From Methanobacteriota archaeon (GTDB lineage: Archaea > Thermoplasmatota > Thermoplasmata > SG8-5 > DAIRED01): 32,711 nucleotides of DNA. Within the stretch, counting starts at the first letter, position 1. Every line of letters starts with the position of its first letter. The DNA is taken from positions 1 to 32,711 of the forward strand of contig JAZDNO010000024.1 in assembly GCA_043799545.1 (NCBI GenBank), read 5' to 3'. The notes beneath the pieces were generated by a model that was given only the letters and a program-made list of their open reading frames with translations, did no database searches and had not been told where the DNA came from. Position numbers and translations under genes: made by a program. This document shows positions 4,259 to 32,711 of this stretch, one piece after another.

Positions 4259-4305
4259 GATTAGTAGTTAAGTTGATGAGTTGAGACAAATCAAGTTTAA
4301 CCTGA

Positions 4306-4750: not shown

Positions 4751-5056
4751 TTATCTGGCCATTTTCCTTTTCTTCCGGACCTCTCGCAGTTTCGTTTGCT
4801 TTCGCGAGTACTCCTCCCAATCCGCGCAATCCAGAACTTTCAGGACTATGTAGTCGATTGTGTATTTCCGAAAGAACTTGTCATCCTTTTTCAGCCCCGT
4901 GCCCCAGTTTTGGAAGACTGAATCTCTGATGTCTCTCAAATGGTAGCCAGATTCGAAGAGCTCAGTAATTTTCCTTGCCTTTTCATCATTCTTCCATTTG
5001 GATGCCTCTTCTTTCGCCCGTGCTTTGATACCTGCATTTCCTTTCGATTCTTTCAA
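4751..5056 (-). CDS. Hypothetical small charged, Lys-rich protein (101 aa), possibly DNA-binding
   Basis: TTG start preceded by AGGGAG. Helical, charged composition (ARKITELFESGYHLRDIRDSVF). No family recognised. Confidence 0.55.
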   Translation of the reverse strand: MKESKGNAGIKARAKEEASKWKNDEKARKITELFESGYHLRDIRDSVFQNWGTGLKKDDKFFRKYTIDYIVLKVLDCADWEEYSRKQTKLREVRKKRKMAR

Positions 5057-5138
5057 TTTTCAATCTCCCTGGCTTGTTTCCCATTGTGCGGATTGCTTCT
5101 TCTGCTTAGTATACGTCACAAGTATCAATATCGTAGAT

Positions 5139-5621
5139 TTAATGGTGATGGCGCCGCATTTTTCGAAGTTCGAGCAGCCGATTGTGTTGCCATTCCAGCT
5201 CTTTGGCGACGGCCTCATCAGCATTCTCTAGGCCGGAGGCTCTATGCACCGCTTGAAGGGCGTACCGTGCAGCACCGATGGAATGCGTGCGGACGTGCGC
5301 GACGGCGACTGCATGGCCCGCGGCGCGGGCGGCCGAGCGTGCGGCGTTATCTTCACCGACCGCGCGGGCGGCCGTATGGGCGTCAAGGGAAGCCTTGCGT
5401 ATGACGGCCATGTGAAATGCCCCGGTGTCTATCCACGTCCTGAGCGTTTCGATGGCGGTCCTTGGGCGCAGGTCCTCCGGATGCTCTTCCTCGAAATAGG
5501 GCAGAACCCGCTCCGCGCAGTCGATCGCCCAAGCCGCCAACGTCCTGTGTCCGGTTTTTCCAACGAGTTCCACGATTCTGTCGTTTTTGTAACGCGTGAG
5601 CGGGCAATCGGATTTTTTCAT
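5139..5621 (-). CDS. Imm5-like putative immunity protein
   Basis: Characteristic motifs 'HRTLAAWAIDCAERVLPYFE...PEDLRPRTAIE...W...RKASLDAHTAAR...AARSAARAAGHAVAVAHV.THSIGAA.YA...E.EWQ...L'. Confidence 0.8.
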   Translation of the reverse strand: MKKSDCPLTRYKNDRIVELVGKTGHRTLAAWAIDCAERVLPYFEEEHPEDLRPRTAIETLRTWIDTGAFHMAVIRKASLDAHTAARAVGEDNAARSAARAAGHAVAVAHVRTHSIGAARYALQAVHRASGLENADEAVAKELEWQHNRLLELRKMRRHHH

Positions 5622-5649
5622 GCCGATTCATCCCCGGCACTCGGACGGC

Positions 5650-17920: not shown

Positions 17921-18214
17921 ATGGCGGTTGAAATCAAGCACGTTCCGGGAAAGAAGAAGAACTGCAAGGTCATGATATACGCGCTCAGTACCTGCGGGTG
18001 GTGCAAGAAGACGAAGCAGATGCTGAAGGACGGCGAGGTGGAATATTTCTACATAGACGTTGACCTGGTCACCGGGACCGAGGACAAGCGCAAGGTCGTC
18101 GAAGAGATGAAGAAGTGGAATCCGTTCAAGTCCTTCCCGACCATCGTCATCGACGACAAGGAGTGCATCATGGGCTTCGACGAGGAGAAGCTCCGAAAGG
18201 TGATTGATAAATGA
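17921..18214 (+). CDS. Glutaredoxin-like protein (methanoredoxin/NrdH-like), CGWC active site
   Basis: Motifs [13 protein letters not shown], NPxxSFPTIVI and GFDEEKL. Overlaps the next gene by ATGA. Confidence 0.9.
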
Positions 18215-18723
18215 GCGCGCCCGACGAGGCTGGAGTCCAGAATACCTACGACAAGCTCAAGCGCGAGGCCGAGGCCGGGGGATACCGGCTCAACCCGGAC
18301 GTGGAATTCACCAAGGAATTGATACGAGGACTGCTGGCGAACGAGGAGCGCCTGGGCTACTGGGCGTGCCCGTGCAGGCTCGCCTCGGGGGACAAGGCCG
18401 AGGACACGGACATCATATGCCCGTGCGACTACCGCGACCCGGACCTGTCGGATTTCGGCGCGTGCTACTGCGCCCTCTACGTTTCCGAAGCCATAGCCAG
18501 GGGCGAGAAGAATGCCGCCGCCATCCCGGAGCGCCGCATACCTCCGGAGGACAGGGTCGCCCCGGCCGCGCCATCGGCGGCGGGCCAAGCCTTCGGCGCC
18601 AAGCCGCTGTCCAAGCCAGTGTGGCGCTGCAAGGTTTGCGGGTACCTCTGCGCGCGCGACGGCCCGCCGGACGTCTGCCCGATATGCAAGGTCAAGAAGG
18701 AGAGGTTCGAGCGCTTTGCATAG
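18211..18723 (+). CDS. Ferredoxin:thioredoxin reductase catalytic-type protein with C-terminal rubredoxin-like domain (FDR-like)
   Basis: CPC...CPC...CYC FTR motif ([25 protein letters not shown]), a linker, then WRCKVCGY...PPDVCPIC. Confidence 0.92.
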
Positions 18724-18778: not shown

Positions 18779-20080
18779 ATGATACGTTTTGGACCTGCTG
18801 GTATACCGCTCTCGTGCAAGGGAAGAACGCTCCGCGACGGCATCGAGGACGTCCACATTCTGGGGCTCAACGCGATGGAGGTACAGCTCGTCAGGACGAA
18901 CGTTATTGACCGGGTCGCCAGCGAGGAGGAGATAGGCTTCACGCCCCGGACCATTCCCGAGGAGCTCGTCGTCGAGATTCTCAGGGATTCCAAGAAGAAG
19001 GGCGAGCGGATTTTCGACCTCGACGAAAAGATACAGAAGGGGGACATCCTGCGCGTCATGGCGTCGGCGATTGCCAAGGACCACGAGCAGCTGAAGCGCC
19101 TCGGGGACCTGGCGCGCGACCTGGACGTGGGAATCTCCATGCACACTCCGTATTATATAGATTTGGTTAGCGACGACGACATCACACAGCGCAGCGTGGA
19201 CAGCGTGATATGGGGCGGCATGCTCACCCAGGAGCTGGGGGGCGGCATACTGGTCACGCACCTCGGGCTCTACGGCAATGTCGAGTCAGACGCCGCACTG
19301 GCCCGAGTCCGCAAGCACCTCGATGGCATCATGAAGATATTCAAGCAGAGCGGCATAACTGTGAAGCTCGGCATCGAGCCGAGCGGGCGCCAGGAGGTCG
19401 TGGGGAGCCTCGAGGAGATAATCGACCTCTGCGATGAGATCGACGGCGTCGTCCCGGTCCTCAACTTCCCCCACATCCACGCGCGCGGGAACGGGAGCCT
19501 CAAGGTTAAGGAGGATTTCCAGAAGCTCTTCGACACCGCGGCCAAGTATTACTCAGGCGAGTTCTACGCCCACTTCTCCGGCGTCGAACACGAGGAGGGG
19601 AACGAGATACGCTACACCCCCATCAAGAAGGGGGACCTCAAGTTCGAGCCTCTGGCCGAGTGCATCCTCGACAAGGGCTACGACATGACGATCATCTCCG
19701 GCTCCCCGCTTCTAGAGCACGATGCGATGTACATGAAGGTCATACTGGAACGCATCTTGGCACGAAGAAGGGCGAAGCCTGTGGCCAAGCCTACCCCGCC
19801 GAAACCTGCGCCGAAGGCGGCGGCGAAGGGCAAGAAGCCCGTCAAGCCGGTCCCTAAGAAGCCTGCCAAGCCGTCCAAGGAACCTGCTGGCAAGAAGCCA
19901 GCGGCAAAGCCGGTAAAGAAGGCGCCGTCCAAACCAGCGCCGAAGAAGGTCGCGCCAAAGAAGCCGGCTGCGAAGCCCAAGGCCAAACCCGCGCCGAAGA
20001 AGGTTGCGGCGAAGAAGCCGGCTGCGAAGCCCAAGGCCAAGCCGAAGAGCGCGCCCAAGAAGAAGCCTGGAAAGAGGTAG
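18779..20080 (+). CDS. Endonuclease IV/AP-endonuclease-like TIM-barrel protein with a ~100-aa Lys/Pro/Ala-rich (histone H1-like) C-terminal tail
   Basis: N-terminal IRFGPAGIP, plus SMHTPYYIDL, LVTHLG, GIEPSG, NFPHIHAR, YAHFSGVE, EIRYTPI and TIISGSP. The tail consists of KKPAAKP-type repeats. Confidence 0.8.
   Translation: MIRFGPAGIPLSCKGRTLRDGIEDVHILGLNAMEVQLVRTNVIDRVASEEEIGFTPRTIPEELVVEILRDSKKKGERIFDLDEKIQKGDILRVMASAIAKDHEQLKRLGDLARDLDVGISMHTPYYIDLVSDDDITQRSVDSVIWGGMLTQELGGGILVTHLGLYGNVESDAALARVRKHLDGIMKIFKQSGITVKLGIEPSGRQEVVGSLEEIIDLCDEIDGVVPVLNFPHIHARGNGSLKVKEDFQKLFDTAAKYYSGEFYAHFSGVEHEEGNEIRYTPIKKGDLKFEPLAECILDKGYDMTIISGSPLLEHDAMYMKVILERILARRRAKPVAKPTPPKPAPKAAAKGKKPVKPVPKKPAKPSKEPAGKKPAAKPVKKAPSKPAPKKVAPKKPAAKPKAKPAPKKVAAKKPAAKPKAKPKSAPKKKPGKR
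19937..20044 (+). repeat. Two tandem 54-bp coding repeats (APKKVA[P/A]KKPAAKPKAKP)
   Basis: Units at 19937-19990 and 19991-20044 are near-identical in DNA. Confidence 0.9.
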
Positions 20081-20087
20081 CGCAGCG

Positions 20088-20627
20088 ATGGACCCGGCGG
20101 CCGGTTACATTTTAAAAGAGGTCGGGTCGGCGCTCGACCGGATACCAGACAAATCGATCTCATCATGCATCGAGATGGTGATGAAAGCCAGGCGGACGTT
20201 CGTCTTCGGTGTCGGGCGCTCGGGGCTCGTCGGCCAGGCGTTCGCCGTGCGGCTGGTGCAGCTCGGCCTGGACGTGCATTTCGTGGGCGACACCACCACG
20301 CCCATCGTGCAGGAGAACGACCTCCTCATTGCGATATCGAACACCGGGGAGACGATGTCCGCCGTCCAGACCGCCAACATCGTGCGGAGGCTCGGGGCGT
20401 CTGTCATAGTCATCACGGGGCGGGAGAACTCCAAGCTCGCCCATGCGGCGAACCTCATCATCCTCGTCAGGGAGCCATCCGACAGAAGCAAGTCGAAGCA
20501 GGCGCCGCTGGGCACGATATTCGAGGACGGTGCGATGATATTCCTGGACGGCCTCATCCCTTTGCTCATGGGGAAGCTGAATCAGACGGAGAACGACATG
20601 CGGGGAAGGCACGCCATCTGGGTCTGA
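20088..20627 (+). CDS. hxlB: 6-phospho-3-hexuloisomerase (SIS domain)
   Basis: Start MDPAAGYIL at 20088. Motifs FVFGVGRSGLV..AFAVRLVQLG, VGDTTTP, AISNTGET and APLGTIFE. Confidence 0.85.
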   Translation: MDPAAGYILKEVGSALDRIPDKSISSCIEMVMKARRTFVFGVGRSGLVGQAFAVRLVQLGLDVHFVGDTTTPIVQENDLLIAISNTGETMSAVQTANIVRRLGASVIVITGRENSKLAHAANLIILVREPSDRSKSKQAPLGTIFEDGAMIFLDGLIPLLMGKLNQTENDMRGRHAIWV

Positions 20628-20751: not shown

Positions 20752-21816
20752 ATGACGCACAGGATAGCGCTCATAGGCTGCGGGACGGTCGGGATAGGTT
20801 TTCTGAAAATACTGAGGGACAAGGGTGAGCACCTCAGGGCCAGGTACGGCTTCGAGGCCAAGGTCGTGGCGGTCTCGGACAAGGTGAAGGGTGCCGTGAT
20901 GGCCGACGGCGGCCTGGACCTCAGGGCGTTCGTGGCGCACGTGGAATCGGGAAAGCCGATCGGCGAGTTCGACCCGAAGGCGGTTCACGGTCTGGACTCA
21001 GTCGAGACCATACGCCGGGCCAAGGCCAGCATCGTCGTGGAGGTCGCCTGGACGGACATAAAGACCGGCGAGCCGGCGGCCACGCACATCAGGGAGTCGT
21101 TCAAGGCCGGAGCGAACGTCGTGACCACGAACAAGGGGCCGGCGACGCTCTTCCACGGCGAGCTCACGGAGCTGGCCAAAGAGCACAACGTCTTGTGGAG
21201 GCACGAAGGCGTCGTGATGAGCGGGACGCCGGTTTTCGACCTGCTGGAGTTCTGCCTCGCCGGCAACGACGTCAAGGAGATCAAAGGCATCCTGAACGGC
21301 ACGACCAACTTCATCCTCACGAAGATGGAGGACGAGGGGATGGCCTACAAGGACGCGCTGGCGCTTGCGCAGAAGCTCGGCTACGCAGAGGCGGACCCGA
21401 CGGCGGACGTCGAGGGCTTCGACGCGCTCGCGAAGATTCTCGTGCTCTCTAACATCGTCCTGGGCGCGAACCTCAAGACCGACCAGGTCGCCCGCCATGG
21501 GATTTCAGCAATCACATTGGAAGACATCGCGAAGGCCAAGAAGGACGGAAAGCGCTACAAGCTCGTCGCAAGCGCGAAGCGCGAGGGCGGCAAGGTCGTC
21601 GCCCAGGTCGAGCCGGTCCAGCTCCCGCTGAGCGACCCGCTCGCCGGAGTGAGCGGGGCGATGAACGCCGTCACATTCACCACCGATTTATCCGGGCCAA
21701 TCACAATCCAGGGGCCTGGCGCTGGGCAGCTCGAGACGGGATTCGCCGTTCTAATCGACGCGCTGAACATACACAGAGCATGCCAGAGCAAAAAGCACGG
21801 ACGCCCCGGCAACTGA
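20752..21816 (+). CDS. hom: Homoserine dehydrogenase (no ACT domain)
   Basis: Rossmann GCGTVG, VVTTNKGP, GILNGTTNFIL, AQKLGYAEADPTADVEGFDA..K and GPGAG..ET. Confidence 0.93.
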   Translation: MTHRIALIGCGTVGIGFLKILRDKGEHLRARYGFEAKVVAVSDKVKGAVMADGGLDLRAFVAHVESGKPIGEFDPKAVHGLDSVETIRRAKASIVVEVAWTDIKTGEPAATHIRESFKAGANVVTTNKGPATLFHGELTELAKEHNVLWRHEGVVMSGTPVFDLLEFCLAGNDVKEIKGILNGTTNFILTKMEDEGMAYKDALALAQKLGYAEADPTADVEGFDALAKILVLSNIVLGANLKTDQVARHGISAITLEDIAKAKKDGKRYKLVASAKREGGKVVAQVEPVQLPLSDPLAGVSGAMNAVTFTTDLSGPITIQGPGAGQLETGFAVLIDALNIHRACQSKKHGRPGN

Positions 21817-21825
21817 GGGAGCTTG

Positions 21826-23604
21826 ATGTCCGGCGGCTACATGGGCAAGTGCATCGAGGTCGACCTGACCAAAGGCACTTCCGAGCCCATGGGGCTTGAC
21901 CGGTCGCGCCTTGAGAAGTGGGTCGGCGGCAAGGGGCTCGGCATTTCATTGCTATTGGAGATGGACCGCTCCGAGGACCCGCTGGACGCAGCCAATCCGC
22001 TCATTTTCCTCACGGGGCCGCTCACCGGTTCCGGAGTCCAGACCTCGGCGCGCTCCTGTCTGGTGACCCGCTCGCCCCTGACCGGTGGTTTCCTGGACTC
22101 GCACGCCGGTGGGCTCTTTGGCGCGTGGTTCAAGAGGACCGGGCACGACTACATGATCGTGAAGGGGGCTTCCAGCAAGCCAGTCTACATCCGCCTTGCG
22201 AAGGATGGGGCGGCGATCGAGGACGCCTCGGAACTCTGGGGCAAGGGCTGCATCGAGACCGAGGACATCCTGAAGGAAAAGCACAGCGGCGCCAAGGTCG
22301 CCGCCATCGGTCCAGCCGGAGAGAACAAGGTGCGCTTCGCCTGCATCACCGCCGATTACTCGCGCAACTACGGAAGGGGGGGCGCCGGCGCCGTCATGGG
22401 CTCTAAAAATCTCAAGGCGGTCGTCGTCCAGGGAAGCGAGCCGATAGGCTACCACGACCCGGCAAGGTTCAAGGCCCTCTCAGCGGAGATGGCGAAGAAC
22501 ATCGCGGAGCACCCGTCCAAGAAGCGCCGGTACGAGCTTGGCACGATGATGTGGGTGCGGATGGGCCAGGAAATCGGCGGCTTCCTTCCGACGAAGAATT
22601 TCAAGCACGGCCAGTGGGACGAGTACGAGAAGATTACCGCCGAGGCCACGGGCAAGGCGCTCGCTTGGGAGCACTGCGGCTGCTTCGGCTGCCGAATCCA
22701 ATGCTCCAAGCGGGCCAAGTGGGACGGCAAGATGATTGAGGGTCCAGAGTACGAAACGGCGGCATACCTGGGCTCTGGATGCCTCATCAACGACCCCAAG
22801 GCGATCGCAGAGGCCAACTGGCTCTGCAACGACCTCGGTCTCGACACGATATCGGCGGGGGTGACGATATCGTTCGCGATGGAAGCAGCCGAGAAAGGTT
22901 TGCTGGACAAGGAGGACAACGAATCGATAAGATGGGGCTCTCCGCAGGCTGTCTACGACCTGCTCGGCAAGATTGCCAGGCGGGATGGAATCGGCAACGT
23001 CCTCGCCGAGGGCACGCGCCGCGCCTCCGCGAAAATCGGAAAGGGGAGCGATTACTTCGCCATCCAGATTGCCGGGATGGAGCTCTCGGGGGTGAACCCG
23101 CTGGGGTCGTACTCCATGCTGCTCTCGCTCGCTACGGCCGACTTCGCCAGCCACACCCGGTTCTGGAGTTGCAGCGACGAGATGGCCAGCAAGCTGAAAA
23201 TCGATTCGTTGGCGAAATACATCGCGGACGGACAGGACGAGGTCTGCGCGCGCAACTCGCTCATAGTCTGCGACTTCCTCCCGTACGGATTCGCGGAGCT
23301 GGCGCCGTTCCTAGAAGCGGCGACGGGCTCGCCTGCGACGAAGGATTCGCTGCAGACCCTCGGCCAGCGGATTTCGGCGCTGGCCCGGCTGTACAACCTG
23401 CGGACCGGAAGGACGCACGCCGACGACCTGGCGATACCCGGCAGGTTCCTCAGCGAGGCGTCCGTTTCAGGCCTCATGAAAGGTCGGAAGGTCGCTCCGG
23501 AGACGTTCGAGCGCCACGTGGCGGAGATTTTCGAGGCTCGGGGCTGGGACGCCGAAGGCAGGCCGACCCAGGAGACGCTGGAGCGGCTGGGCATCGACGT
23601 TTAA
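21826..23604 (+). CDS. aor: Aldehyde:ferredoxin oxidoreductase family protein (W-pterin, 4Fe-4S)
   Basis: Motifs GGKGLG, NPLIFLTGPLTG, SPLTG, AIGPAGEN.VRFA.I, GRGGAGAVMGSKNLKA, CFGCRIQC, EGPEYET, GLDTISAG, VCDF and RGWD..G.PT.ETL..LG. ATG at 21826, after GAGGGAG. Confidence 0.93.
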   Translation: MSGGYMGKCIEVDLTKGTSEPMGLDRSRLEKWVGGKGLGISLLLEMDRSEDPLDAANPLIFLTGPLTGSGVQTSARSCLVTRSPLTGGFLDSHAGGLFGAWFKRTGHDYMIVKGASSKPVYIRLAKDGAAIEDASELWGKGCIETEDILKEKHSGAKVAAIGPAGENKVRFACITADYSRNYGRGGAGAVMGSKNLKAVVVQGSEPIGYHDPARFKALSAEMAKNIAEHPSKKRRYELGTMMWVRMGQEIGGFLPTKNFKHGQWDEYEKITAEATGKALAWEHCGCFGCRIQCSKRAKWDGKMIEGPEYETAAYLGSGCLINDPKAIAEANWLCNDLGLDTISAGVTISFAMEAAEKGLLDKEDNESIRWGSPQAVYDLLGKIARRDGIGNVLAEGTRRASAKIGKGSDYFAIQIAGMELSGVNPLGSYSMLLSLATADFASHTRFWSCSDEMASKLKIDSLAKYIADGQDEVCARNSLIVCDFLPYGFAELAPFLEAATGSPATKDSLQTLGQRISALARLYNLRTGRTHADDLAIPGRFLSEASVSGLMKGRKVAPETFERHVAEIFEARGWDAEGRPTQETLERLGIDV

Positions 23605-24863
23605 CGGTGGTGCAGCTTCGGCGCCGCGATGAAGCTCAAGCCATTCTCCGTGAGCGCCTTCGCCGTCACGTTGACTGACTCGTGCTTGTCCATGTAGTTC
23701 TGGGCGACGAGGGGCATGAGCCCGTCCTTCTCGATGTCCGCGCGCGTGGCGAAGTACTCCAGAATGTCGGACGGGTGCTTGCGGGACTGCTCCGTGGCTA
23801 TCTCCCCGCCCTCGTGCTTGGCACTGATGTTGGGGACCTTCCGCGCGACCTCGAGAAGCTCGCCGCGGCGGTTGTACGGCTGCCGTACGATGTGCTTCCA
23901 GGTCTCGGTGATGTGGTGCTCCAGCCTCACGTTGTCCGTGAAGCCGAACTTCCCCCGGATGCGGTCCGCTGCTTCGATGGTCCCGTTGTCGACCGAGTTC
24001 GATAGGTTGAACCCGATGAGCGGCGTGGTGCCGTCCGCCCTGCTCAGGAGCTTCGCTGTCATCAGGGTCCAGAAGATGGAGTACGGGTTGTCGTTCCCCA
24101 TGAATACGGATATCTTGAACTCTAGGTCCACTCCAGCTTTATAGAGCATGTACCCCAGTATGACCGTTCCCGGATTCACGTTCAAAACCTGTTTGACTCC
24201 GAAGTTGGTGTGGTAATACAGAAACTCGTCTATCCAGGCGAGCGCGTGGTCGTTGGGCTGGCCCACGCCGCCGAAGTACCCTGTGATGGTGTCCGGCCCG
24301 CCCAGGTGCACGTTCGAGCCGTCGGTGCCCTTGGTGTCCAGGGTCTCGCAGACGCTCGCCCCCATCATCGCCATCGCGGCCTGGACCGCCGCCAGGTCGC
24401 CGTCCGCCTCCTGCTCCTTCATCATCCTCACGCGGATGAACCGCCCAGGCATGAGCTCCCTTTTCTCGATTGCCTGGCGGGCCTCCTGCATCAGGAACGG
24501 GAAGTACTGGAGCGCGCTGATTTCGAGCGTGACTGGTTTGCTCTCGTCGAATTTCGTCTGAGGGTACTTCGCACCCAGAACGCTTTTTCTGTAGTCCCCG
24601 ACGGATACGAACGCGCCTTTTTCCATCTGCGCGGAAAGCCAATCCAGCCCCTTGACGTGCTCATCATGGCCGCCTTTCTTCAGGCTCGCCATCAGGCTCT
24701 CGATTCTGGCGGACTCGCGGTGCTTCCTGTTTATCTCCGCCACCCCGCCGTGCCTGTCGATTATCCGCTGGAGGCCGTTGGTGAGCGGGTTGTCCCCCGC
24801 CGCCAGAAAATCGTTCACTTCCATCATCCGCTTCTCCGGTATGCCGAACTTGTCATCGCCCAT
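23601..24863 (-). CDS. Uncharacterised 420-aa soluble protein (enzyme-like; I recall this family as conserved but unannotated)
   Basis: Long ORF with typical codon usage and an upstream GAGGGTGGAG RBS. Contains dense motif-like segments: TLEISALQYFP, MPGRFIRVR, ETLDTKGTDGSNVHLGG, GYFGGVGQPN, FKISVFMGNDN, EHHITET, SAKHEGG and YMDKH. Confidence 0.85.
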   Translation of the reverse strand: MGDDKFGIPEKRMMEVNDFLAAGDNPLTNGLQRIIDRHGGVAEINRKHRESARIESLMASLKKGGHDEHVKGLDWLSAQMEKGAFVSVGDYRKSVLGAKYPQTKFDESKPVTLEISALQYFPFLMQEARQAIEKRELMPGRFIRVRMMKEQEADGDLAAVQAAMAMMGASVCETLDTKGTDGSNVHLGGPDTITGYFGGVGQPNDHALAWIDEFLYYHTNFGVKQVLNVNPGTVILGYMLYKAGVDLEFKISVFMGNDNPYSIFWTLMTAKLLSRADGTTPLIGFNLSNSVDNGTIEAADRIRGKFGFTDNVRLEHHITETWKHIVRQPYNRRGELLEVARKVPNISAKHEGGEIATEQSRKHPSDILEYFATRADIEKDGLMPLVAQNYMDKHESVNVTAKALTENGLSFIAAPKLHHR

Positions 24864-24988
24864 GGCTCCACCCTCTCAAAACTACCGTCGAGAATATCGG
24901 GTCATCGTTATTAACCGTTTCGCCCCCGGCCAAAGCGCACTTTAAAATATCACGGTTCGATTTGGAAGCGACAGGAGAAGAAAGGCAC

Positions 24989-26149
24989 ATGCTCGGGACC
25001 GCGAAGAAGGCCGAGAGGTTGACGGGCCAGGCGGCCTTCAAGACCCTGGCCAGGGCGAGGGAGCTGGAGAGGAAGGGCGTCGACGTCCTCCACTTCGAAA
25101 TCGGCGAGCCAGACGGCCCGTCGCCCCCCCACGTAGTCGAGGCCGCGAAGAAGGCGCTCGACGGGGAGTACACCCATTACATCGCATCCTCCGGAATCCC
25201 AGAGCTGAGGGAGGCGGTGCGCGACGAGGTCGAGGCCGCCAGGGGTTTCCGCCCCGACATGGACCAGGTACTCATCACCCCCGGGGCGAACCCGATAATC
25301 TACTTCGCCGCATCGGTGCTGATGGAGCAAGACGACGAGGTCATCCTTCCCGACCCCGGTTTCATGTCCTACCAGTCGGTCTTCAACTACCTCGGCGTCC
25401 CGAAGCGCGGAATCAGGCTTCGGGAGGACAACAAATTCAGGATGAGCCCGGCGGACGTCGAAGCCGCGATATCACCGAAGACAAAGCTCATAGTCATGAA
25501 CTCGCCCCAGAACCCGACAGGCTCCGTGATGACCGGGGCGGAGGTCGAGGAGATGGCCGACATCGCCGAGCGGAGCGGCTCGTATCTGCTGAGCGACGAG
25601 ATTTACGGCAAGCTCACCTACGGGGTGAAGCACCACTCGCCCGCTGCCCGAGACGAATGCAAGGAGAGGACGATATTGCTGGATGGTTTCTCCAAGGCGT
25701 ACGCGATGACGGGCTGGCGGCTCGGATACTGCGTCGGGCCCAGGGACGTCATCGCCAAGATGGCCTTGCTCCTGGAAACGACTGTCTCGTGCACGACCTC
25801 GTTCGTCCAGAAGGGCGGCGTCGCGGCGCTGAAGGGCCCGCAGGATTCGGTCAGGGCGATGAGGGACCAGTTCCGGGAGCGCAGGGACGCCATCGTCGCG
25901 GGGCTGAACTCAGTGCCGAACGTGAGCTGCATCGTGCCGGACGGGGCATTCTACGCGTTCCCCAACATCACCAAGACGGGTATGACGAGCGAGCAGTTCT
26001 CCGAGCACCTCCTCAACGACCTGGGAATCGCCGCGCTGCCCGGAACGGCGTTCGGGCCCGGGGGCGAGGGGTACGTGAGGTTCTCGTACGCGACGTCGCT
26101 GGAATCGATAGAGAAGGCAATTGGGCGGATGAAAAAGGATTCCTTTTGA
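24989..26149 (+). CDS. aspC: Class I/II PLP-dependent aminotransferase (aspartate aminotransferase-like)
   Basis: Motifs FEIGEPD, ITPGA, NSPQNPTG, SDEIY, DGFSKAYAMTGWRLGY (PLP Lys), GAFYAF and GEGYVRFSYA. ATG at 24989. Confidence 0.9.
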   Translation: MLGTAKKAERLTGQAAFKTLARARELERKGVDVLHFEIGEPDGPSPPHVVEAAKKALDGEYTHYIASSGIPELREAVRDEVEAARGFRPDMDQVLITPGANPIIYFAASVLMEQDDEVILPDPGFMSYQSVFNYLGVPKRGIRLREDNKFRMSPADVEAAISPKTKLIVMNSPQNPTGSVMTGAEVEEMADIAERSGSYLLSDEIYGKLTYGVKHHSPAARDECKERTILLDGFSKAYAMTGWRLGYCVGPRDVIAKMALLLETTVSCTTSFVQKGGVAALKGPQDSVRAMRDQFRERRDAIVAGLNSVPNVSCIVPDGAFYAFPNITKTGMTSEQFSEHLLNDLGIAALPGTAFGPGGEGYVRFSYATSLESIEKAIGRMKKDSF

Positions 26150-26174: not shown

Positions 26175-26741
26175 TCATTCGATATATATCCCAAACCTCG
26201 CCGGGACGTACCCGCCCGAATCGAGCCGGAACGCGCCGGCCTCCTCCTTCACCGGGTCGACGACCAAAGCGACGTGCCCGGCGCCGGAGAACATCGCGCG
26301 CTGCGTCGCAACGTCCGTCTCAGAGAGGAAGCAGCCGAAGCCAGGGTGGCTGTGGTACCATCCGATTACGACGTATTCGAAATCGACCTTAGCGAGCGAC
26401 GCCGCCAGCTCGTCCAGGCCTTCGCGCGAGAACCTGACGCCCACCAGGGTCGCGTCGAGCTGGGTGGTGACTGCCTTCCTCGCCAGCGCGTATTCCAACC
26501 CCAAGTCCCTCCGCATCTCGCCCAGCAAAAGCCCCATGACCTCCAGGCGCTCTCCCTTGTGGGCCACGGCGTGCTTCCTGAGCGCCTCCTCGGCGAGGCT
26601 GCTGAGGTAGAGGGCGCAAGGCTCCCCCTTCCGCGGACGGCACGGCTCTATGGACCAGGGATGGCTCAAGGCGGGTTTGGGCGGCGGAGAGTCCGCCACC
26701 TTCGCCTCCTCATGGCCGACTATGCGCGGCTTCGGGCTCAA
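26175..26741 (-). CDS. JAB/MPN+ (JAMM) metalloprotease, Rpn11-like
   Basis: Catalytic Glu in LEVMGLLLG and the JAMM motif IGWYHSHPGFGCFLSETD (HxH-x7-S-x2-D), followed by ALVVDP. Start reassigned to TTG 26741 (MSPKPRIV), 7 nt after GGAGG. Confidence 0.92.
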   Translation of the reverse strand: MSPKPRIVGHEEAKVADSPPPKPALSHPWSIEPCRPRKGEPCALYLSSLAEEALRKHAVAHKGERLEVMGLLLGEMRRDLGLEYALARKAVTTQLDATLVGVRFSREGLDELAASLAKVDFEYVVIGWYHSHPGFGCFLSETDVATQRAMFSGAGHVALVVDPVKEEAGAFRLDSGGYVPARFGIYIE

Positions 26742-26763
26742 CCGGATGCCTCCGATACGGCCA

Positions 26764-27270
26764 TCATCCCAGCACCCTCGGTGGCGGGGCCTCCGCCACA
26801 ACGACGGGAGGGCAGTACCTGTGCTCCCTGAAGTATCCCGCCGCGGTCATGCAGCTCTCGCTGGCGTACGGGTTGTCCGGGTTCGGGTTCATGAGCAGGC
26901 TCTCAAGGCCCCTGACGAAGCTGGAAAGGTTCGATGAAAAGCTCCAGTCGTCCAGCAGCTTGGTGCACACGTATCCGCCGTCGCGGGCGAGCATGATGTT
27001 CGGGTGGAAGATGGGGCTCTGCCAGCGCACGATGGGCTTCTCGTACGGATATTCCCCCGTGACTATGATTTTCAGCCGGTGCTCGTAAGCGTGCGCCACC
27101 TTTCCCGAGCGCATGACGGGCCCAGGGGTCTTGACGAGCGTGACGTCGATTTCGACGGGAAATGCATCCGGCGCCGCCTCGGGCGCCTCCAGCCTGTGCC
27201 TCAGGCTGCGCCTACACATCTCCAGTTCGTTGCGGACCCTGGCCGCGAGTATGTCTGCCGGCAGCCCCAT
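26764..27270 (-). CDS. Ubiquitin-conjugating enzyme E2 (UBC fold)
   Basis: HRLKIIVTGEYPYEKPIVRWQSPIFHPNI...GYVCTKLLDDWS...LESLLMNPNPDNP carries the YPxxxP, HPN, catalytic Cys, W and NPxxP signatures of UBC domains. The ATG is 1 nt after the Ubl stop codon. Confidence 0.92.
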   Translation of the reverse strand: MGLPADILAARVRNELEMCRRSLRHRLEAPEAAPDAFPVEIDVTLVKTPGPVMRSGKVAHAYEHRLKIIVTGEYPYEKPIVRWQSPIFHPNIMLARDGGYVCTKLLDDWSFSSNLSSFVRGLESLLMNPNPDNPYASESCMTAAGYFREHRYCPPVVVAEAPPPRVLG

Positions 27271-27271
27271 C

Positions 27272-27541
27272 TCAGCGCCGTCCGGCTTCGCGGCGAAGAC
27301 GCCGTCCGCCTTCCGGGTCCGGTATCAGTTCCAGAACGTCCCCGTCGCGTATCCCAGCGACCGCAAGCCCCGCGTTCCCGCGCAGAATCGACTTTCCCCT
27401 CCGGACGACGTACGCGCCGGCGGATTTCTCCCAGTAGCTGGCCGCGCTCTCGATTATCTCGTCGACCGAATTGTCGCTCTCCAGCTCCATGTCGACGCTC
27501 GCGCCCGTTTCAGCGTTCCTTACCTTGATCCTAAGGCTCAT
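27272..27541 (-). CDS. Ubiquitin-like (beta-grasp) protein precursor: Gly-Gly at residues 78-79 plus a 10-aa extension
   Basis: ATG 27541 follows RBS GGTGAGAGG. MSLRIKVRNAETGASVDMELESDNSVDEII...LRGNAGLAVAGIRDGDVLELIPDPEGG|RRLRREAGRR shows ubiquitin-like strand/helix spacing and a 'GIRDGDVLEL' equivalent of ubiquitin's late strand. Confidence 0.85.
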   Translation of the reverse strand: MSLRIKVRNAETGASVDMELESDNSVDEIIESAASYWEKSAGAYVVRRGKSILRGNAGLAVAGIRDGDVLELIPDPEGGRRLRREAGRR

Positions 27542-27588
27542 CCTCTCACCGCTGGGGGAAAACAAAGACCGGAGATAAACCTTTTGGA

Positions 27589-27720
27589 TTACTCCTCGTA
27601 ATAATGGCAGTACTCGCAGATGTTGCCCAGCGTGGGCTGCGAGGTCATCCCCTTGGTGCCCAGCCAGCTCTGGCATCTTCCGTGCATCTGGGGCTGGAGG
27701 CCCATCTTGCATTGTGCCAT
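27589..27720 (-). CDS. 43-aa Cys-rich microprotein (putative Zn-binding), first gene of the Ubl operon
   Basis: Translated by hand: MAQCKMGLQPQMHGRCQSWLGTKGMTSQPTLGNICEYCHYYEE*. RBS GGTGAT lies 3 nt before the ATG and a TATA-like CTTTATTTAT ~30 nt upstream. Pattern C-x11-C-x18-C-x2-C-H. Too short for the ORF track. Confidence 0.75.
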   Translation of the reverse strand: MAQCKMGLQPQMHGRCQSWLGTKGMTSQPTLGNICEYCHYYEE

Positions 27721-27749: not shown

Positions 27750-27804
27750 ATAAATAAAGGTTGCCACGGTGCCAGGACCGTTTTTCTACCAATTTTATTA
27801 TATA
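27750..27804. promoter_or_regulatory. Back-to-back TATA-like boxes driving the Ubl operon (minus) and the membrane/AAA operon (plus)
   Basis: Minus-strand CTTTATTTAT at 27759-27750 and plus-strand TTTTATTATATA at 27793-27804, inside a 124-bp AT-rich intergenic gap in otherwise GC-rich DNA. Confidence 0.6.
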
Positions 27805-27844: not shown

Positions 27845-29170
27845 ATGGCAAAGAGGCTCGCGCTGTTGTTCACCGTAGCACTTCTCGCTGTCCCGCTGCT
27901 CGCCGCTGCGTCATCTTCGGGTATGGATCCGTCGGGCGCGGAAACGAGGGCCCCCACGGTGACAGAGCGATACGAAATGATGCCCTTCGACAACGGAACC
28001 CTCCTGATTCCCATGGACTCGATGCAGGCGGACAGGCTCTCGGTCTTCGGCATGATTCACGCACTCCTGCGCAACGACACCCCGCTCCACAGGATAATCA
28101 CCCCTCCGGACCAGTTCATAAAGACGAGGAACAGGCCCGGGGGGGCCAACTACAGCGGGGGGCCGTTCCTGGTGACTGAGTTCGACGAGACGCTCATCGA
28201 CGAGATGCGCTACAAGTTCCAGAACGTGACCCTGGACTACGTATCCGAGCTTTTCGTCTCTTCGAGCGTCTACAACGTGAAGAAGGCCACGAGCATCCTG
28301 CTGATAACTGGCATGTACGACTGGGGCAGGACGCACACCCTGCTTGACCGGATGTCGATACCGTACCACAAGACCACCACGACGACGGTCACGGGCCAAC
28401 CCGAGATGATGCTCGACTACGACCTGATAATAGACGACAGCAAGGGGTGGGCCGCGGATTGGGATTCCGCGTCCAACCCGAACCAGGTCCAGAAGGTCTA
28501 CCAGCTCACTGGGATGATGAGGACCGCCGTGAACGGCGGAAAGCACATGATCTTCACCGACATAGCGATGAAGGACATGGTCAGGGCCTTCCCCAACTAC
28601 ATGACGATAACCAGCAACGGAATAGACGGCGTCGTGGAAAACGACGTGCATTGCCAGGTTCAAACCCTGAGCGAGTCCCCCGCGCAGTACTCCGGCGCGA
28701 AGAACATCACTGTGAAACTGCCTGTGGGCGGGGTCATCATCAGAAGGCCGGTTTCCTCCGCAGTCCGCGTCGTCCTCGACAGCGACGACTACCGCGGGGA
28801 TTACAGGATGATGGCGGCCTACTTCTACTACGGCAAGGGAACGGTCGAGGCGATGGCCTACCTCCCATACGAGCAGTCCGGCGATTCGTACATCCTGTCC
28901 AGCCTGTTCTACGGCAACAGGTTCGTGCAGGCCCCGCCGGCGCCCCTCAAGGCCACTCTTCCCCTCGCCCCGGACGGGCTGGGGTTCCCGCTCCCCGCGG
29001 CGCCGCCGCCGCCACCGCCGCCGCCACCGCCACCGCCGGCCGTCATCGCCGGGGCCGGTGTGGGCTCGGGGGTCGGGGGAATCGGAGTGCTCAGCCTCAC
29101 TGGATTGCTGGTCGCCGACAGGCTGAAGCTGAGGAGGGCGCACAGGCAGAAGATGGTGGTGAGCGCGTGA
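27845..29170 (+). CDS. Exported protein with signal peptide, 12-Pro linker and C-terminal Gly-rich TM anchor
   Basis: ATG 27845 gives MAKRLALLFTVALLAVPLLAAA. The globular body has N-x-S/T sequons, followed by PPPPPPPPPPPP, the GVGSGVGGIGVLSLTGLLVA TM segment and basic RLKLRRAHRQK. Confidence 0.85.
   Translation: MAKRLALLFTVALLAVPLLAAASSSGMDPSGAETRAPTVTERYEMMPFDNGTLLIPMDSMQADRLSVFGMIHALLRNDTPLHRIITPPDQFIKTRNRPGGANYSGGPFLVTEFDETLIDEMRYKFQNVTLDYVSELFVSSSVYNVKKATSILLITGMYDWGRTHTLLDRMSIPYHKTTTTTVTGQPEMMLDYDLIIDDSKGWAADWDSASNPNQVQKVYQLTGMMRTAVNGGKHMIFTDIAMKDMVRAFPNYMTITSNGIDGVVENDVHCQVQTLSESPAQYSGAKNITVKLPVGGVIIRRPVSSAVRVVLDSDDYRGDYRMMAAYFYYGKGTVEAMAYLPYEQSGDSYILSSLFYGNRFVQAPPAPLKATLPLAPDGLGFPLPAAPPPPPPPPPPPPAVIAGAGVGSGVGGIGVLSLTGLLVADRLKLRRAHRQKMVVSA
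29003..29038 (+). repeat. CCG/CCA trinucleotide run encoding a 12-residue polyproline linker
   Basis: ccg ccg ccg cca ccg ccg ccg cca ccg cca ccg ccg, read directly. Confidence 0.9.
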
Positions 29171-30239
29171 GGCGCATCCTAGCGGTCGTGGCGGTGGCAC
29201 TCGTCGCCCTGGTCATGGCGCAGGCCGCCCCCGCGGACGGGCACACCCGCGCCGACAGCCTCGGCTGGCAGTACGAGTCGTTCCAGGACAACGTCAATCT
29301 GACGTTCTCGCCCAAGAGCCCGACCCCGATGGAGCCCGTCGTGATACGCGCCCAGTCCAGGAACCCGCTCGTCCACATCCAGGTGGCCTACTCGTACATG
29401 ACGATACAGCTGCCGAACTCCGGGCCCGTAACGACTGGCCTGACGTTCAGCAGGTGGAACGAGACCGTGATGACCTGCACCCTCTCGGCCTATCCGAACG
29501 GCACGCTGGTGCGGTTCTACGTCAACGTCCTGGACTACTACAACACGCCCGCGGTATCCGGCAATTACACATACACGGTCGCAGGGCAGGACAGGCCCGG
29601 CGGATGGGCGCACACGGAGTTCGAGAAGAACCTGAACATCACCTGGTTGCCGAACCCGCCGAACGCCACAGAGCCTTCTGCCGTGACGATACGGAGCAAG
29701 GAGGGGACGGCGATATACGGGGCCTACCTGTACCTGACCTACGAGGTCAAGGTCGGCCAGCCCCAGTCCGGCGGCTACCCGTTCGTGCGCGTCAACCAGA
29801 CGGCGATGTCGTGCGAAATCCCGGGCTACCCGATGGGCACGGGGGTGCGCTTCTGGGTTTCCGCGTGGGACAAGTACAACAACCTGACCATATCCGGATA
29901 CTACAATTACACGGTCCCCAGGGAGGGGGACTACACCAGCCACGAATTCGTTCCCATCGACGGCTTGAGCGTCGTGGGCGGCCTAGCGGCCTTCGCGGCC
30001 GTCGGCGCAGTTGCGTACGTGCGAGTGCTTCGCGAGGAGCGCAAGCGCCGCGAGAAGGGCACCAAGTACGGCAAGACCGGATTCGAAAAGGAGAATGCAG
30101 AGCCATCCAGGGCTGCGGACGCCTCCAAACCCGCCGAGCCGGTAAAGGCGCCCGCGCCGCAAGCGAAGGGCGCCGGGCCCGCCAAACCCGCTGCCCCGGC
30201 AAACCGGAGGCGCAGCCCAAAAAGGAGGCACCGGGATGA
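29167..30239 (+). CDS. Single-pass membrane protein with two tandem Ig-like extracellular domains and an Ala/Pro/Lys tail; apparent 1-nt frameshift near 30200
   Basis: GTG start overlaps the upstream stop (GTGA). It has a signal peptide, two ~115-aa homologous domains ending V(R)F.V...D.YN....SG.Y.YTV, and a TM VVGGLAAFAAVGAVAYV. The natural-looking C-terminus KPEAQPKKEAPG* lies in the -1 frame and ends in an ATGA overlap with the next gene. Confidence 0.75.
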
Positions 30240-32711
30240 GCCTGGACTCGCAGGGGCCGGAGCCGCTGCCGAAGCGCATCAGGCTGTTCGTAAAGAGCCC
30301 GCGCACGGCCAGAAGCGTCGCTTTCTTCCTGCTCGGGGCGCTCGCCGGCCTGTGGGTCCCGTTCTACCCGGTCTGGATGGCGCTGTTCTTCGGCATGCTC
30401 TCCGCGGTCATAGGCTACTCGTTCCCGCTGATGGCGCTCATAGCCGACGCGGTCTTCGTCACAGGAGCCGCCGGATACCAGTCTCCCGAGTTCGGTCTCG
30501 TCTTCCTCGTGCTGTCGCTCATCCTGCTCTTCGCCTCCCTCTACGACTGGAAGTTCGGCTTCATAGTCTTCGCGGCGATATACGGCAGCAGGTTCGGCCT
30601 CACGCTCCCTATATTATTGGCCGCGGCCGCGATATACCCGATGATGCTCTCGCTCTCCGCGGCGATGGCCTCTTCCATCAGCCTCATGGTCGTAACGTCG
30701 TGCGCGAACATGACGTCCCTGGGTTTCTTCGTCGCGGCCCCGCACACTTCGAGCTTCATGCTCTTCTACGAGCCCTCGGGGGCGTTCTCGCTCAGGGACA
30801 TGCTGGTCGCGTACGGCGACCTCCAGAGGGCGGAGCTTTCGATAGTCGGGCCGGTGCTGGTGGACAACCTCGGCGCGTCCGTGGTGCCGATATTCGAAAT
30901 CGCGGCGTGGATGGCCATGGCGCTGCTGGTCGTGTTCGCCTCGCGGCGCGCGGAGCGCGACAGGTTCCAGGGGATTCTCCTCACCGCGGCAGTGGGCTTC
31001 GCGGCGATGATGACGTTCATAGGCGCGCACCTGGCCATGGGGCTGGACGTCCCGGTGGCGGGCGCTGGCGCGTCCGTCCTGCTGCTGGCCAGCGCGCCCG
31101 CGGCCCTGGGGATTTCGCTCCTGGTCAAGGAGGAGTTCAGGGACTTCTTCGCCGAGCAGGGGATGCTCAGCTCCGTCGGCACGCGCGTGGCCGAATCGGC
31201 CAACCTGGGCCGGAGCAGCTTCGACCAGGTCGGCGGCCTGGCCGAGGTCAAGAACGAGCTGAAGGAGTCGATAATGGTCCCGCTTCTCAGGCCCGACCTC
31301 GCAATCCGCTTCGGCATAGACCCGCCGAAGGGAATCCTCCTGTTCGGCCCGCCCGGCTGCGGGAAGACGATGCTGATGAAGGCGCTGGCGAACGAGCTGA
31401 AGGTCGAGATGGTCACCGTCAAGTGCTCCGACATCATGTCCAAGTGGTACGGCGAGTCCGAGGGGAAGGTGTCGGAGCTCTTCCAGGCGGCGAAGGCCAG
31501 GCGCCCGGCCATCATCTTCTTCGACGACCTCGAGGCGATGGCGAAGAACAGGGACTTCTACGGCGGCGACGACGTAACGCCGCGCCTGCTCAGCATCATC
31601 CTCTCGGAGCTTGACGGCATGGACCGCTCCTCGGGGATAGTCCTGGTCGGGACGACAAACAAACCCGGGCTCATAGACCCAGCGCTTCTGAGGCCAGGGC
31701 GTTTCGACAAGGTCATCTACATCCCTCCGCCGAACGAGCACGAGAGGGCCGAGATTCTCGAAGTCCACCTTTCGGAGAAGCCCGTGGCGCCGGACCTCGA
31801 CCTCGAGGAAATTGCTGCGCGGTGCGAGCGGTTCTCCGGAGCCGATTTGGCGAACATGGTCAAGGAGGCGACGGTGCTGGCGATGCGCAGGACGCTCGAG
31901 ACCGAGGCGGTCAGCGTCGTGACGAACGCGGACCTCCTGGCTGTCGTGGCGAACATCAAGCCGAGCATAACGATTGCGATGCTGGAGGACTACGAGCTCC
32001 TCAAGATGGACTACGAGCGCAAGATGCACACGGTCGTCCGGGAGGACATGCGCGGCCCCTCGCTGCGCTGGAACGACATCATCGGCGCCGAGCGCACGAA
32101 GCGCGACATCAGGGAGTACATGGAAGTCCTTCTCCACGCCCCCGAGATAATGGAGGACTTCAGGCTCAGGGCGGGGAGGGGAATCCTGATAATCGGCCCC
32201 CACGGCTGCGGCAAGTCGCTCATAGTGCGGGCGGCGGCTCACGCGCTCGACATCCCGCTCCAGCGCGTCAACTGCGCCGAGCTTGTCTCGGTCGGGGACG
32301 GCACGACGGTCAAGGAGGTGTTCCACAGGGCCAGGGAGAACGCTCCCGCGATGGTTTTGCTTGAGGACTTGGAGGCCATCGCTGCCAGCGCCATATCCGG
32401 TTCGACGGTCGAAAGCAGGACGATTCTGGGCCAGCTCCTCGGCGAGATAGACGGGATAGGGGAGCGCGAGCAGGTGCTCATCGTGGCGACGACGCACATG
32501 CCCGACACGCTCCAGGCGTCGGTGCTCAGGCCGGGGCGCTTCGACAAGCTGTTCTACGTCCCGCCGCCCGACATAGGTTCCAGGAAGGGGATAATGGAGC
32601 TTCTCCTCCGCGACGTGCCGAAGGGCGCGGACATCGACGACTCGTTCCTTTCCTCGATCGCCTCGAAGACAGAGGGCTACAGCGCCGCGGACCTGGCGTC
32701 CATAGTCGACG
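30236..32711 (+). CDS. Membrane-bound double-AAA ATPase (Cdc48/VAT-like, multi-TM N-terminus), 3'-truncated at the window edge
   Basis: Not in the ORF track because it has no stop in the window. ATG 30236 lies 7 nt after AGGAGG. A ~300-aa hydrophobic multi-helix N-terminus precedes D1 (VGGL..VK.EL.E...VPL, GILLFGPPGCGKT, SKWYGESE, IIFFDDLE, TNKP..IDPALLRPGRFD) and D2 (GPHGCGKS, VLLEDLE, LRPGRFDKLFYVPPP). Confidence 0.92.
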   Translation, partial: MSLDSQGPEPLPKRIRLFVKSPRTARSVAFFLLGALAGLWVPFYPVWMALFFGMLSAVIGYSFPLMALIADAVFVTGAAGYQSPEFGLVFLVLSLILLFASLYDWKFGFIVFAAIYGSRFGLTLPILLAAAAIYPMMLSLSAAMASSISLMVVTSCANMTSLGFFVAAPHTSSFMLFYEPSGAFSLRDMLVAYGDLQRAELSIVGPVLVDNLGASVVPIFEIAAWMAMALLVVFASRRAERDRFQGILLTAAVGFAAMMTFIGAHLAMGLDVPVAGAGASVLLLASAPAALGISLLVKEEFRDFFAEQGMLSSVGTRVAESANLGRSSFDQVGGLAEVKNELKESIMVPLLRPDLAIRFGIDPPKGILLFGPPGCGKTMLMKALANELKVEMVTVKCSDIMSKWYGESEGKVSELFQAAKARRPAIIFFDDLEAMAKNRDFYGGDDVTPRLLSIILSELDGMDRSSGIVLVGTTNKPGLIDPALLRPGRFDKVIYIPPPNEHERAEILEVHLSEKPVAPDLDLEEIAARCERFSGADLANMVKEATVLAMRRTLETEAVSVVTNADLLAVVANIKPSITIAMLEDYELLKMDYERKMHTVVREDMRGPSLRWNDIIGAERTKRDIREYMEVLLHAPEIMEDFRLRAGRGILIIGPHGCGKSLIVRAAAHALDIPLQRVNCAELVSVGDGTTVKEVFHRARENAPAMVLLEDLEAIAASAISGSTVESRTILGQLLGEIDGIGEREQVLIVATTHMPDTLQASVLRPGRFDKLFYVPPPDIGSRKGIMELLLRDVPKGADIDDSFLSSIASKTEGYSAADLASIVD

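Follow-up and report, generated by a model that had tools for sequence, protein, structure and literature searches.

A ubiquitin-like tag, an E2 and an Rpn11-like protease predicted at one locus of a Thermoplasmatota archaeon: a rearranged copy of a phylum-wide cassette

Among archaea, ubiquitin-type tagging that depends on a conjugating enzyme (E2) has, to our knowledge, been characterised in Caldiarchaeum alone; for Asgard archaea it has been inferred. Both come with RING ligases (E3s). The Caldiarchaeum and Asgard systems have been used to argue for an archaeal origin of the eukaryotic ubiquitin system. Sampylation in Haloferax (SAMP/UbaA/JAMM1) uses no E2, and its tags are of the ThiS/MoaD type. 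The operons of Caldiarchaeum subterraneum (Aigarchaeota) and of Asgard archaea encode ubiquitin, proteins resembling the activating enzyme (E1) and the E2, a small RING E3, and Rpn11 (PMC3082918, PMC5654768, PMC6043591); Caldiarchaeum Rpn11 matures its ubiquitin precursor and also deconjugates (PMC6043591). Fuchs et al. (2018) further mention a 'JAMM-3' group near Rpn11/CSN5, 'found in operons with Ub-, E1-, and E2-homologs', with no taxa given (PMC6043591). Our literature search found no paper describing or testing an E2 system in Thermoplasmatota, Thermoplasmata or Methanomassiliicoccales. Here we analyse a locus encoding a ubiquitin-like protein (Ubl), an E2 and a JAB protease in a 32,711-nucleotide stretch of DNA from a Thermoplasmatota archaeon (contig JAZDNO010000024.1, positions 1 to 32,711; the window). 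We consider it likely that these proteins serve as tag, conjugating enzyme and protease in a minimal ubiquitin-like modification system that is vertically inherited across the Thermoplasmatota, and for which a genome-wide search for RING and U-box proteins revealed no E3.

The locus occupies positions 26175-27720 of the minus strand and comprises four co-oriented open reading frames (ORFs), encoding in order a Cys/His microprotein, the Ubl, the E2 and the JAB (Table 1). They are separated by 47 bp (microprotein-Ubl), 1 bp (Ubl-E2) and 22 bp (E2-JAB). An earlier note on this DNA had described four packed co-oriented genes with these gaps, an HPN motif and a Cys in the E2, a JAMM motif in the JAB and a Gly-Gly in the Ubl, and the ORF coordinates, translations and ortholog alignments agree with it on each of these points. 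It had also placed the genes in a housekeeping setting at core base composition, with no signs of a defence island. This too is what we find: the G+C content (GC) at the locus, 0.61-0.64, is the same as that of the window from 11 kb onward, and none of the metabolic genes that surround the locus matches a PADLOC defence model. Its view that the genes form a resident Ubl module of eukaryotic style, with an E2, in an archaeon outside the Asgard group is supported by the nearest relatives of the locus, which are in metagenome-assembled genomes of Thermoplasmatota, Thermoplasmata and Methanomassiliicoccales.

The E2 matched the Pfam family UQ_con above its cut-off (7.5e-13), and its best solved relatives were human and yeast UBE2A/Rad6 (2e-11). 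Residues H89, P90, N91, C102, W109, P129 and N130 are invariant among 41 E2 orthologs, and the family has three additional residues in the loop between HPN and Cys. An AlphaFold2 (AF2) model with a predicted local distance difference test score (pLDDT) of 89.2 contains the UBC helix, beta-meander and helices, and its top Foldseek matches were all canonical eukaryotic E2s (UbcH5, Ubc12, Rad6, UBE2E1 and Ubc9; 22-26% identity). When a profile of the family was compared with 1.8 billion representatives, just 32 clusters scored below 1e-30, eukaryotic E2s coming next at 1e-20 to 1e-28. Identity to the window's E2 is 87% within the genus, 54-68% within the order and 35-60% within the class.

The JAB ORF spans 26175-26801, and its start was placed at the TTG codon at 26741 by alignment with orthologs beginning MSxKPKIVG. 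The protein matched Pfam JAB at 2.6e-12 and is the only match to PF01398 in the genome. It has the full JAMM motif, E...HSHPGFGCFLSETD (E...HxH-x7-S-x2-D), with the catalytic Glu in LEVMG upstream of the HxH part and HxH...S..D encoded at 26313-26354; the motif is invariant across the family. Matches in the Protein Data Bank (PDB) were strongest to yeast and human Rpn11 (2.4e-16), the Rpn11-like protein of Caldiarchaeum (1.9e-13) and CSN5 (3.7e-13), and weak to AMSH and BRCC36 (about 1e-5). This pattern fits the description of JAMM-3, which is probably the group formed by the cassette described below.

For the Ubl, the sole Pfam family matched was YukD, a beta-grasp family (6e-7); its sequence gave no match in the PDB or to Pfam ThiS. 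In a 45-sequence alignment A1, G13, W37, Y44, G49, L72, P74, D75, P76, G78 and G79 are invariant, and the core of about 79 residues has the invariant ending ELIPDPEGG, followed in the window by ten further residues. The AF2 model (pLDDT 82.9) shows a beta-beta-alpha-beta-beta-short helix-beta order typical of the beta-grasp, with a disordered tail. The top Foldseek matches were SUMO1, Hub1, ubiquitin, Caldiarchaeum ubiquitin, ISG15 and NEDD8, at template modelling (TM) scores of 0.73-0.78, and ThiS/MoaD was not among the matches listed. The beta-grasp fold, named beforehand as one of the points at which the reading could fail, is predicted by the model and its structural neighbours.

The earlier note had called this protein a pro-Ubl. 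The ten-residue tail is real here; it is not a conserved feature. Gly-Gly is the exact C-terminus in 41 of 66 Ubl orthologs, and the remaining 25 have tails of 1-15 unrelated residues. A genome of the same genus (G001; our designations G, C, L and f denote genomes, contigs, loci and families) has an unrelated 15-residue tail, APLAASGFDIYLGGR, in place of the window's RRLRREAGRR, and the sequence that joins the tail to the E2 start is TGAGATGGGG in both. From the orthologs that stop at Gly-Gly and the unrelated tail of G001, the tail is best described as a variable, translated Ubl-E2 spacer with no conserved sequence. Where it is present, as in the window's genus, the tag would have to be trimmed before activation, and variable tails of 0-15 residues after the Gly-Gly fit trimming by a protease to that point. 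The tryptic remnant predicted from the Ubl end ...PDPE-GG is the 14-residue DGDVLELIPDPEGG.

The three proteins resemble those of Caldiarchaeum and Asgard archaea in comprising an operon-encoded, ubiquitin-fold Gly-Gly tag that is sometimes a precursor, a UBC-fold E2 and an Rpn11-like JAMM protease; the Ubl model superposes on Caldiarchaeum ubiquitin at a TM score of 0.76. They differ in that no RING E3 was found in the searches described below, the tag does not match Pfam ubiquitin, the E1 has about 265 residues, and the host belongs to the Thermoplasmatota, outside Asgard and TACK. Like Haloferax sampylation, the system is archaeal and has a tag of the beta-grasp fold, an E1 of the ThiF type and a JAMM protease. 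Unlike sampylation, it includes an E2, its JAB does not reach the cut-off of the desampylase model (30.5 bits against 130), and a separate ThiS gene is present elsewhere in the genome.

The genes for the Ubl and the JAB flank that of the E2 in 72 of 80 related loci, which is well beyond chance; by gene order, the Ubl, E2 and JAB genes form a real module. In about 55 of these 80 loci a ThiF-family E1 of about 265 residues is encoded on the same strand immediately 5' of the Ubl gene. Gene calls made independently on contigs from metagenomes list a ThiF protein of 255 residues, an 80-residue ORF, a UQ_con protein of 161 residues and a JAB protein of 166 residues, followed past the JAB gene by convergent SIS and AP_endonuc_2 genes and then by ribosomal L18e/L13. 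An AP_endonuc_2 ortholog lies 1-2 kb past the JAB gene in 15 of 16 related loci checked, and the compact operon is also present in four closed genomes of 1.5-1.9 Mb. The E2 profile was found in 75 of the 301 Thermoplasmatota genomes sampled, all at least 80% complete, with 5-7 copies in some large genomes; the cassette is single-copy in the small genomes examined, namely the window's genome and the closed genomes.

In the window the Ubl core ends in ELIPDPEGG, the E2 gene is directly downstream and the JAB gene comes next, as in this Thermoplasmatota cassette. A cassette-type ThiF E1 gene directly upstream of the Ubl is absent from the window, and its ortholog is on contig C24. By orthology and gene order the locus is a rearranged copy of the cassette ThiF-E1 - Ubl - E2 - JAB. 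It shares with the usual form orthologous Ubl, E2 and JAB genes (35-87% E2 identity), their order, and the convergent SIS and AP_endonuc_2 genes. It differs in the unlinked E1, the microprotein gene upstream, the ten-residue Ubl tail and the 5.5 kb between JAB and SIS: judged against the other loci, the E1 gene has moved away, an unrelated microprotein gene stands upstream and 5.5 kb of metabolic genes have been inserted downstream. E2 identity declines as relatives become more distant in taxonomy, and the genes around the cassette on the chromosome are conserved; both observations point to vertical inheritance of the system across the Thermoplasmatota. The earlier picture of an E2-containing operon stands, not as an isolated oddity but as one copy of a phylum-wide cassette whose E2 is already labelled 'ubiquitin-conjugating enzyme E2 [Thermoplasmata archaeon]' by public pipelines.

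Bacterial-type defence systems have a similar set of parts. Bil systems share an E1, an E2, a Ubl and a Ubl-pre-processing JAB (bioRxiv 10.1101/2023.09.26.559546), and BilABCD is further like the cassette in its single beta-grasp Ubl, the lack of an E3 and an E1 without a ubiquitin-fold domain. The cassette might then serve in antiviral defence in the manner of Bil, Bub or CBASS-Cap2, tagging phage or virus proteins and not host proteins. The JAB does match BilC weakly (1.1e-3, PADLOC), the E1 of a related operon matches BilD at 2e-5, and the E1 partially matches Cap2 'E1-E2' models at up to 57 bits, in the generic adenylation core only. We nevertheless regard a defence role as improbable. No PADLOC model, those of Bil included, matches the E2 or the Ubl; the E2 has a canonical HPN and matches eukaryote-type UQ_con, not a prokaryotic E2 family; and the E1 resembles UBA1 (94 bits) more than it does any Cap2 model, BilD not being among the 25 best models listed for the E1 of the window's genome. 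Unlike BilABCD, the cassette is at one conserved housekeeping site (SIS, AP_endonuc_2 and ribosomal-protein genes) across families and not in a defence island. Its single copy in the small genomes examined, the tracking of taxonomy by sequence identity and the metabolic neighbours in the window, free of defence-model matches, argue in the same direction.

The window's genome (G000; 2.06 Mb, 94% complete) contains two ThiF genes, neither linked to the locus and none within the window. One, on C24, has the motifs of the cassette E1 family, GAGAxGNE, DMDxVxxSNLxRC, GCLDN, a CxxC...PxCPxH zinc site and a conserved R-x-S/G-C-T-G cysteine (Table 1). Cassette E1s of about 265 residues match Pfam ThiF at 9e-45 and are MoeB-sized (249 residues in the solved MoeB structure), and among solved structures the E1 best matches UBA1 (1e-25), SAE2 and UBA6, in each case in the active adenylation domain, with MoeB behind them (2.7e-22). 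The other ThiF gene is on C10; a ThiS-family gene follows it at a distance of no more than 5 bp, and by this arrangement the two are a separate sulfur-carrier pair. The partner E1, previously taken to be a generic ThiF/UbaA, is corrected by these assignments to a member of the cassette's own E1 subfamily. Among 41 relatives, an ortholog of this E1 (E at most 1e-54) and an E2 were both found in 21 and neither in 18; one relative, a 72% complete genome, had the E1 alone, and one had the E2 alone, in a fused form.

The same proteins could also be read as parts of a sulfur-transfer pathway. Prokaryotic beta-grasp/ThiF pairs are mostly engaged in sulfur transfer, YukD is a non-conjugated family, and the E1 is of MoeB size and matches MoeB at the value given above; the Ubl would in that case be a sulfur carrier or another non-conjugated beta-grasp protein only, and the E2-like and JAB-like proteins would be non-catalytic or unrelated. 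There is little to recommend this where a separate ThiF-ThiS pair is present in the genome and the Ubl model is SUMO/ubiquitin-like, with the listed matches free of ThiS/MoaD. The invariance of the E2 HPN and Cys and of the JAMM motif across the family argues for catalysis, and E1, Ubl, E2 and JAB travel together. We judge a sulfur-carrier role unlikely.

E1 and E2 genes are on separate contigs in families f1-f3, which are all the E2-bearing families of the window's order, and are adjacent in families f7, f11 and f17. As the split is common to f1-f3, it appears to be old and stable, and not a recent accident. This bears on a further explanation, that loss of the E1 left a decaying, non-functional Ubl-E2-JAB trio, of which the unprocessed tail is a symptom. 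The E1 slot is indeed empty, the Ubl reads past its usual stop and the flanks are rearranged, and a dead derivative exists elsewhere, a Ubl-E2 fusion with His for the catalytic Cys and no Gly-Gly. We give decay a very small chance, since the catalytic residues of the window's proteins are all intact, an intact E1 ortholog is on C24, and the same-genus genome also pairs a tailed Ubl with an intact JAB. The split arrangement has been kept in the three families at 54-87% E2 identity, which suggests long-term purifying selection.

The fusion just mentioned is a 227-residue protein (L022:7824-8507, G035:C52) in which HPN is kept, the catalytic Cys is replaced by His and the junction lacks Gly-Gly, so that the protein looks catalytically dead. 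Proteins of about 225 residues with this Ubl-E2 layout, the E2 domain being at residues 79-224, are numerous in the list from the representative search. A second, divergent E2 type (HPNIIPxQRGxVC) adjoins a larger JAB protein at two loci (L025:5881-8001, G023:C24; L026:7293-9547, G014:C15), and that of L026 has a long Pro/Gln-rich repeat tail with a CxxC...CxxC zinc ribbon at its end.

The intact catalytic residues and the domain identity of all three module proteins speak for a conjugation system at the locus. Several observations weigh against it. The fit of the E2 model to eukaryotic E2s is no more than moderate (TM 0.55-0.65, root-mean-square deviation about 4 A), and the Ubl, at 12.3 bits (E 0.15), falls below the 25.4-bit threshold of Pfam ubiquitin. 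The E1 lies outside the locus, and its assignment as partner of the Ubl and E2 comes from orthology and co-occurrence. It has neither a catalytic-cysteine domain nor a ubiquitin-fold domain, the domains through which canonical E1s bind E2s. Finally, the genome-wide RING/U-box search identified no E3 or substrate-recognition factor. No RING or U-box domain was found by Pfam in the four proteins of the locus; in the whole genome there was one sub-threshold match to zf-RING_2, on C11, and none to U-box, a weak negative in that the U-box model matched no control genome either.

The C11 protein (G000:C11:6187-8157; L119:1245-3155) is a membrane protein with an ectodomain and transmembrane segments. 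Its C4HC3 RING/PHD-like finger is cytosolic, and it also has a second zinc ribbon and a DUF835 domain. Its zf-RING_2 score is 18-24 bits, below the cut-off. It was considered as an E3 and rejected: its orthologs occur widely and their distribution does not follow that of the E2, as they are present also in two genomes (G032, G010) where the E2 was not found. A surface protein of about 381 residues, encoded directly 3' of the JAB on the same strand at 38 loci (L048:7214-8359 and 37 others), was rejected as an E3 on its signal peptide, N-x-S/T-rich ectodomain, C-terminal membrane anchor and lack of a Pfam match. No ortholog of it was found in the window's genome, and an atlas search gave hypothetical proteins only. 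A gene for a Peptidase_M29-like protein of about 375-420 residues is directly upstream of the E1 gene, on the same strand, at L046:3577-4833 and about 25 other loci; the window's genome has an ortholog on C5 and several paralogs, and no functional link to the cassette has been established.

The remaining gene of the locus encodes the Cys/His microprotein. Its 11 orthologs share 22 invariant columns, including C4, H13, C16, C35 and C38, and the family pattern MxCKxGxxPxxHGRCxxWxGxxGMxSQPTLGNICxYC (window 27589-27720; L109-L118). Searches of Pfam, NCBIfam and PADLOC gave no family match, and an atlas search nothing above 0.77. The gene was found in 30 of 151 genomes of the class; its conservation spans the order and extends to some other families. 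Among the families where no E2 was found, f4 (5/5 genomes), f12 (7/7) and f15 (2/2) have it; in the E2-bearing families f7, f11 and f17 it was not found. In f3 and f4 it precedes a gene for a GNAT acetyltransferase of about 290 residues, on contigs other than that of the Ubl; it adjoins the Ubl gene only in G000, G001 and G002, and is 1.5 kb from it in G005. A distribution independent of the E2 means that the microprotein is not a dedicated operon member; by its conservation it is a real gene, and a neighbour of the cassette rather than part of it. The claim of a Zn microprotein as a member of the operon thus has to be given up, GNAT being its usual neighbour, although in the window it may be co-transcribed with the Ubl.

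The microprotein gene precedes the Ubl gene by 47 bp, has the same orientation and is probably co-transcribed with it; this position, shared by G001 and G002, would suit a minimal E3 or adaptor of the system. Its four invariant Cys and one invariant His are consistent with one zinc site, and the comparable slot in Caldiarchaeum operons holds a small RING protein (PMC6043591). Such a role is hard to reconcile with the presence of the microprotein in E2-less families, its absence from three E2-bearing ones and its location in f3 on other contigs beside a GNAT gene, and Pfam detects no RING or U-box signature in it; we think it most improbable. A predicted complex of microprotein, E2, mature Ubl and zinc scored 0.01, a value that, obtained without control runs, speaks on neither side.

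For the modification system proposed here, a sequence of steps can be put together from homology, conserved residues, synteny and co-occurrence, on which every one of them depends. The Ubl would be made with its ten-residue C-terminal extension, and the Rpn11-like JAB would cut this off to expose Gly79; such a step fits both the presence of a JAB in the operon and what Caldiarchaeum Rpn11 has been shown to do with the ubiquitin precursor of that archaeon (PMC6043591). The cassette-type ThiF E1 from C24 would then adenylate Gly79, using its Gly-rich ATP loop, and probably form a thioester on the cysteine of the crossover-loop R-x-S/G-C-T-G motif. From there the Ubl would be handed to Cys102 of the E2. 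With the HPN asparagine, which is needed for aminolysis, the E2 would put the Ubl on target lysines, either directly, as Ubc9 can, or with a partner, and the same JAB would take the tag off again. We advance more tentatively a fuller picture, in which a working, vertically inherited E2-dependent system of the Thermoplasmatota has no dedicated E3, a MoeB-sized E1 and an Rpn11-like protease, the E2 picking its substrates itself and the JAB perhaps coupling tagging to Cdc48/proteasome-dependent turnover.

If such a system does work in Thermoplasmatota, E2-based tagging would not be confined to the lineage of Asgard, TACK and eukaryotes, and could be studied in vivo in cultivable relatives among the methanogens. 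A simpler cassette with a near-canonical UBC enzyme and no identified E3, spread across a euryarchaeal phylum, would give a second, independent view of E1-E2 cascades before E3s, and would serve as a minimal system for asking how a MoeB-sized E1 passes a tag to an E2. What the window adds in particular is that the E1 appears separable from the cassette over long evolution, in three families, with the other parts undecayed.

Table 1. Positions of the locus, its parts and associated genes (window coordinates unless a contig is named)
Feature	Position	Strand	Basis or description
Rpn11/CSN5-like JAMM metalloprotease (JAB), 188 residues	26175-26741	minus	Pfam JAB, PDB matches, ortholog alignment
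UBC-fold E2, 168 residues	26764-27270	minus	Pfam UQ_con, alignment, AF2
E2 HPN (H89-P90-N91)	26998-27006	minus	translation
E2 predicted catalytic Cys102	26965-26967	minus	translation
Ubl precursor, 89 residues	27272-27541	minus	translation, Pfam, alignment, AF2
Ubl Gly78-Gly79	27305-27310	minus	translation
Ubl ten-residue tail RRLRREAGRR	27275-27304	minus	stop codon at 27272-27274
Cys/His microprotein, 43 residues	27589-27720	minus	11-ortholog alignment
Candidate TATA box	27750-27758	minus	TTTATTTAT, about 30 nt upstream of microprotein ATG; read from sequence
Putative Shine-Dalgarno-like element	27542-27550	minus	GGTGAGAGG right before Ubl ATG, inside 47-bp spacer; read from sequence
AP_endonuc_2 TIM-barrel gene	18779-20080	plus	Pfam
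SIS-domain gene	within ORF 20004-20627	plus	Pfam
5.5-kb block between SIS gene and JAB	20752-26149		homoserine dehydrogenase, aldehyde:ferredoxin oxidoreductase (AOR), 420-residue protein of unknown function, aminotransferase
Cassette-type E1, 282-residue ORF	G000:C24:15823-16668		53-57% identical over full length to operon E1s

Upstream of the four genes, TTTATTTAT is a candidate for the TATA box of the locus, and GGTGAGAGG, upstream of the Ubl ATG, would be a Shine-Dalgarno-like element. On the other side, beyond the 5.5-kb block, the AP_endonuc_2 and SIS genes (18779-20627) are, by comparison with the related loci, the ancestral convergent neighbours of the cassette. Close to them, at 18211-18723, a 170-residue ORF combines an FeThRed_B catalytic domain (5.7e-21) with a C-terminal rubredoxin-like RUBY_RBDX domain (4.6e-14).

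At the far end of the window a Cdc48-like ORF with two AAA domains, preceded by about 360 residues ahead of the first, runs off the end (30236-32710), and PADLOC IetA models match its AAA core only (2.5e-52). The divergent genes for this AAA ATPase and for secreted proteins (27845-32710) were considered as a partner of the locus resembling endoplasmic-reticulum-associated degradation (ERAD) and rejected, their adjacency being confined to the same genus and seen at 0 of 16 related loci. The first 10 kb of the window (1-10000) have a GC of 0.42-0.52, against 0.59-0.66 in the remainder, and may be a foreign or compositionally distinct region. This low-GC stretch has two very long ORFs, one on the plus strand at 824-4258 (1144 residues) and one on the minus strand at 5650-10428 (1592 residues).

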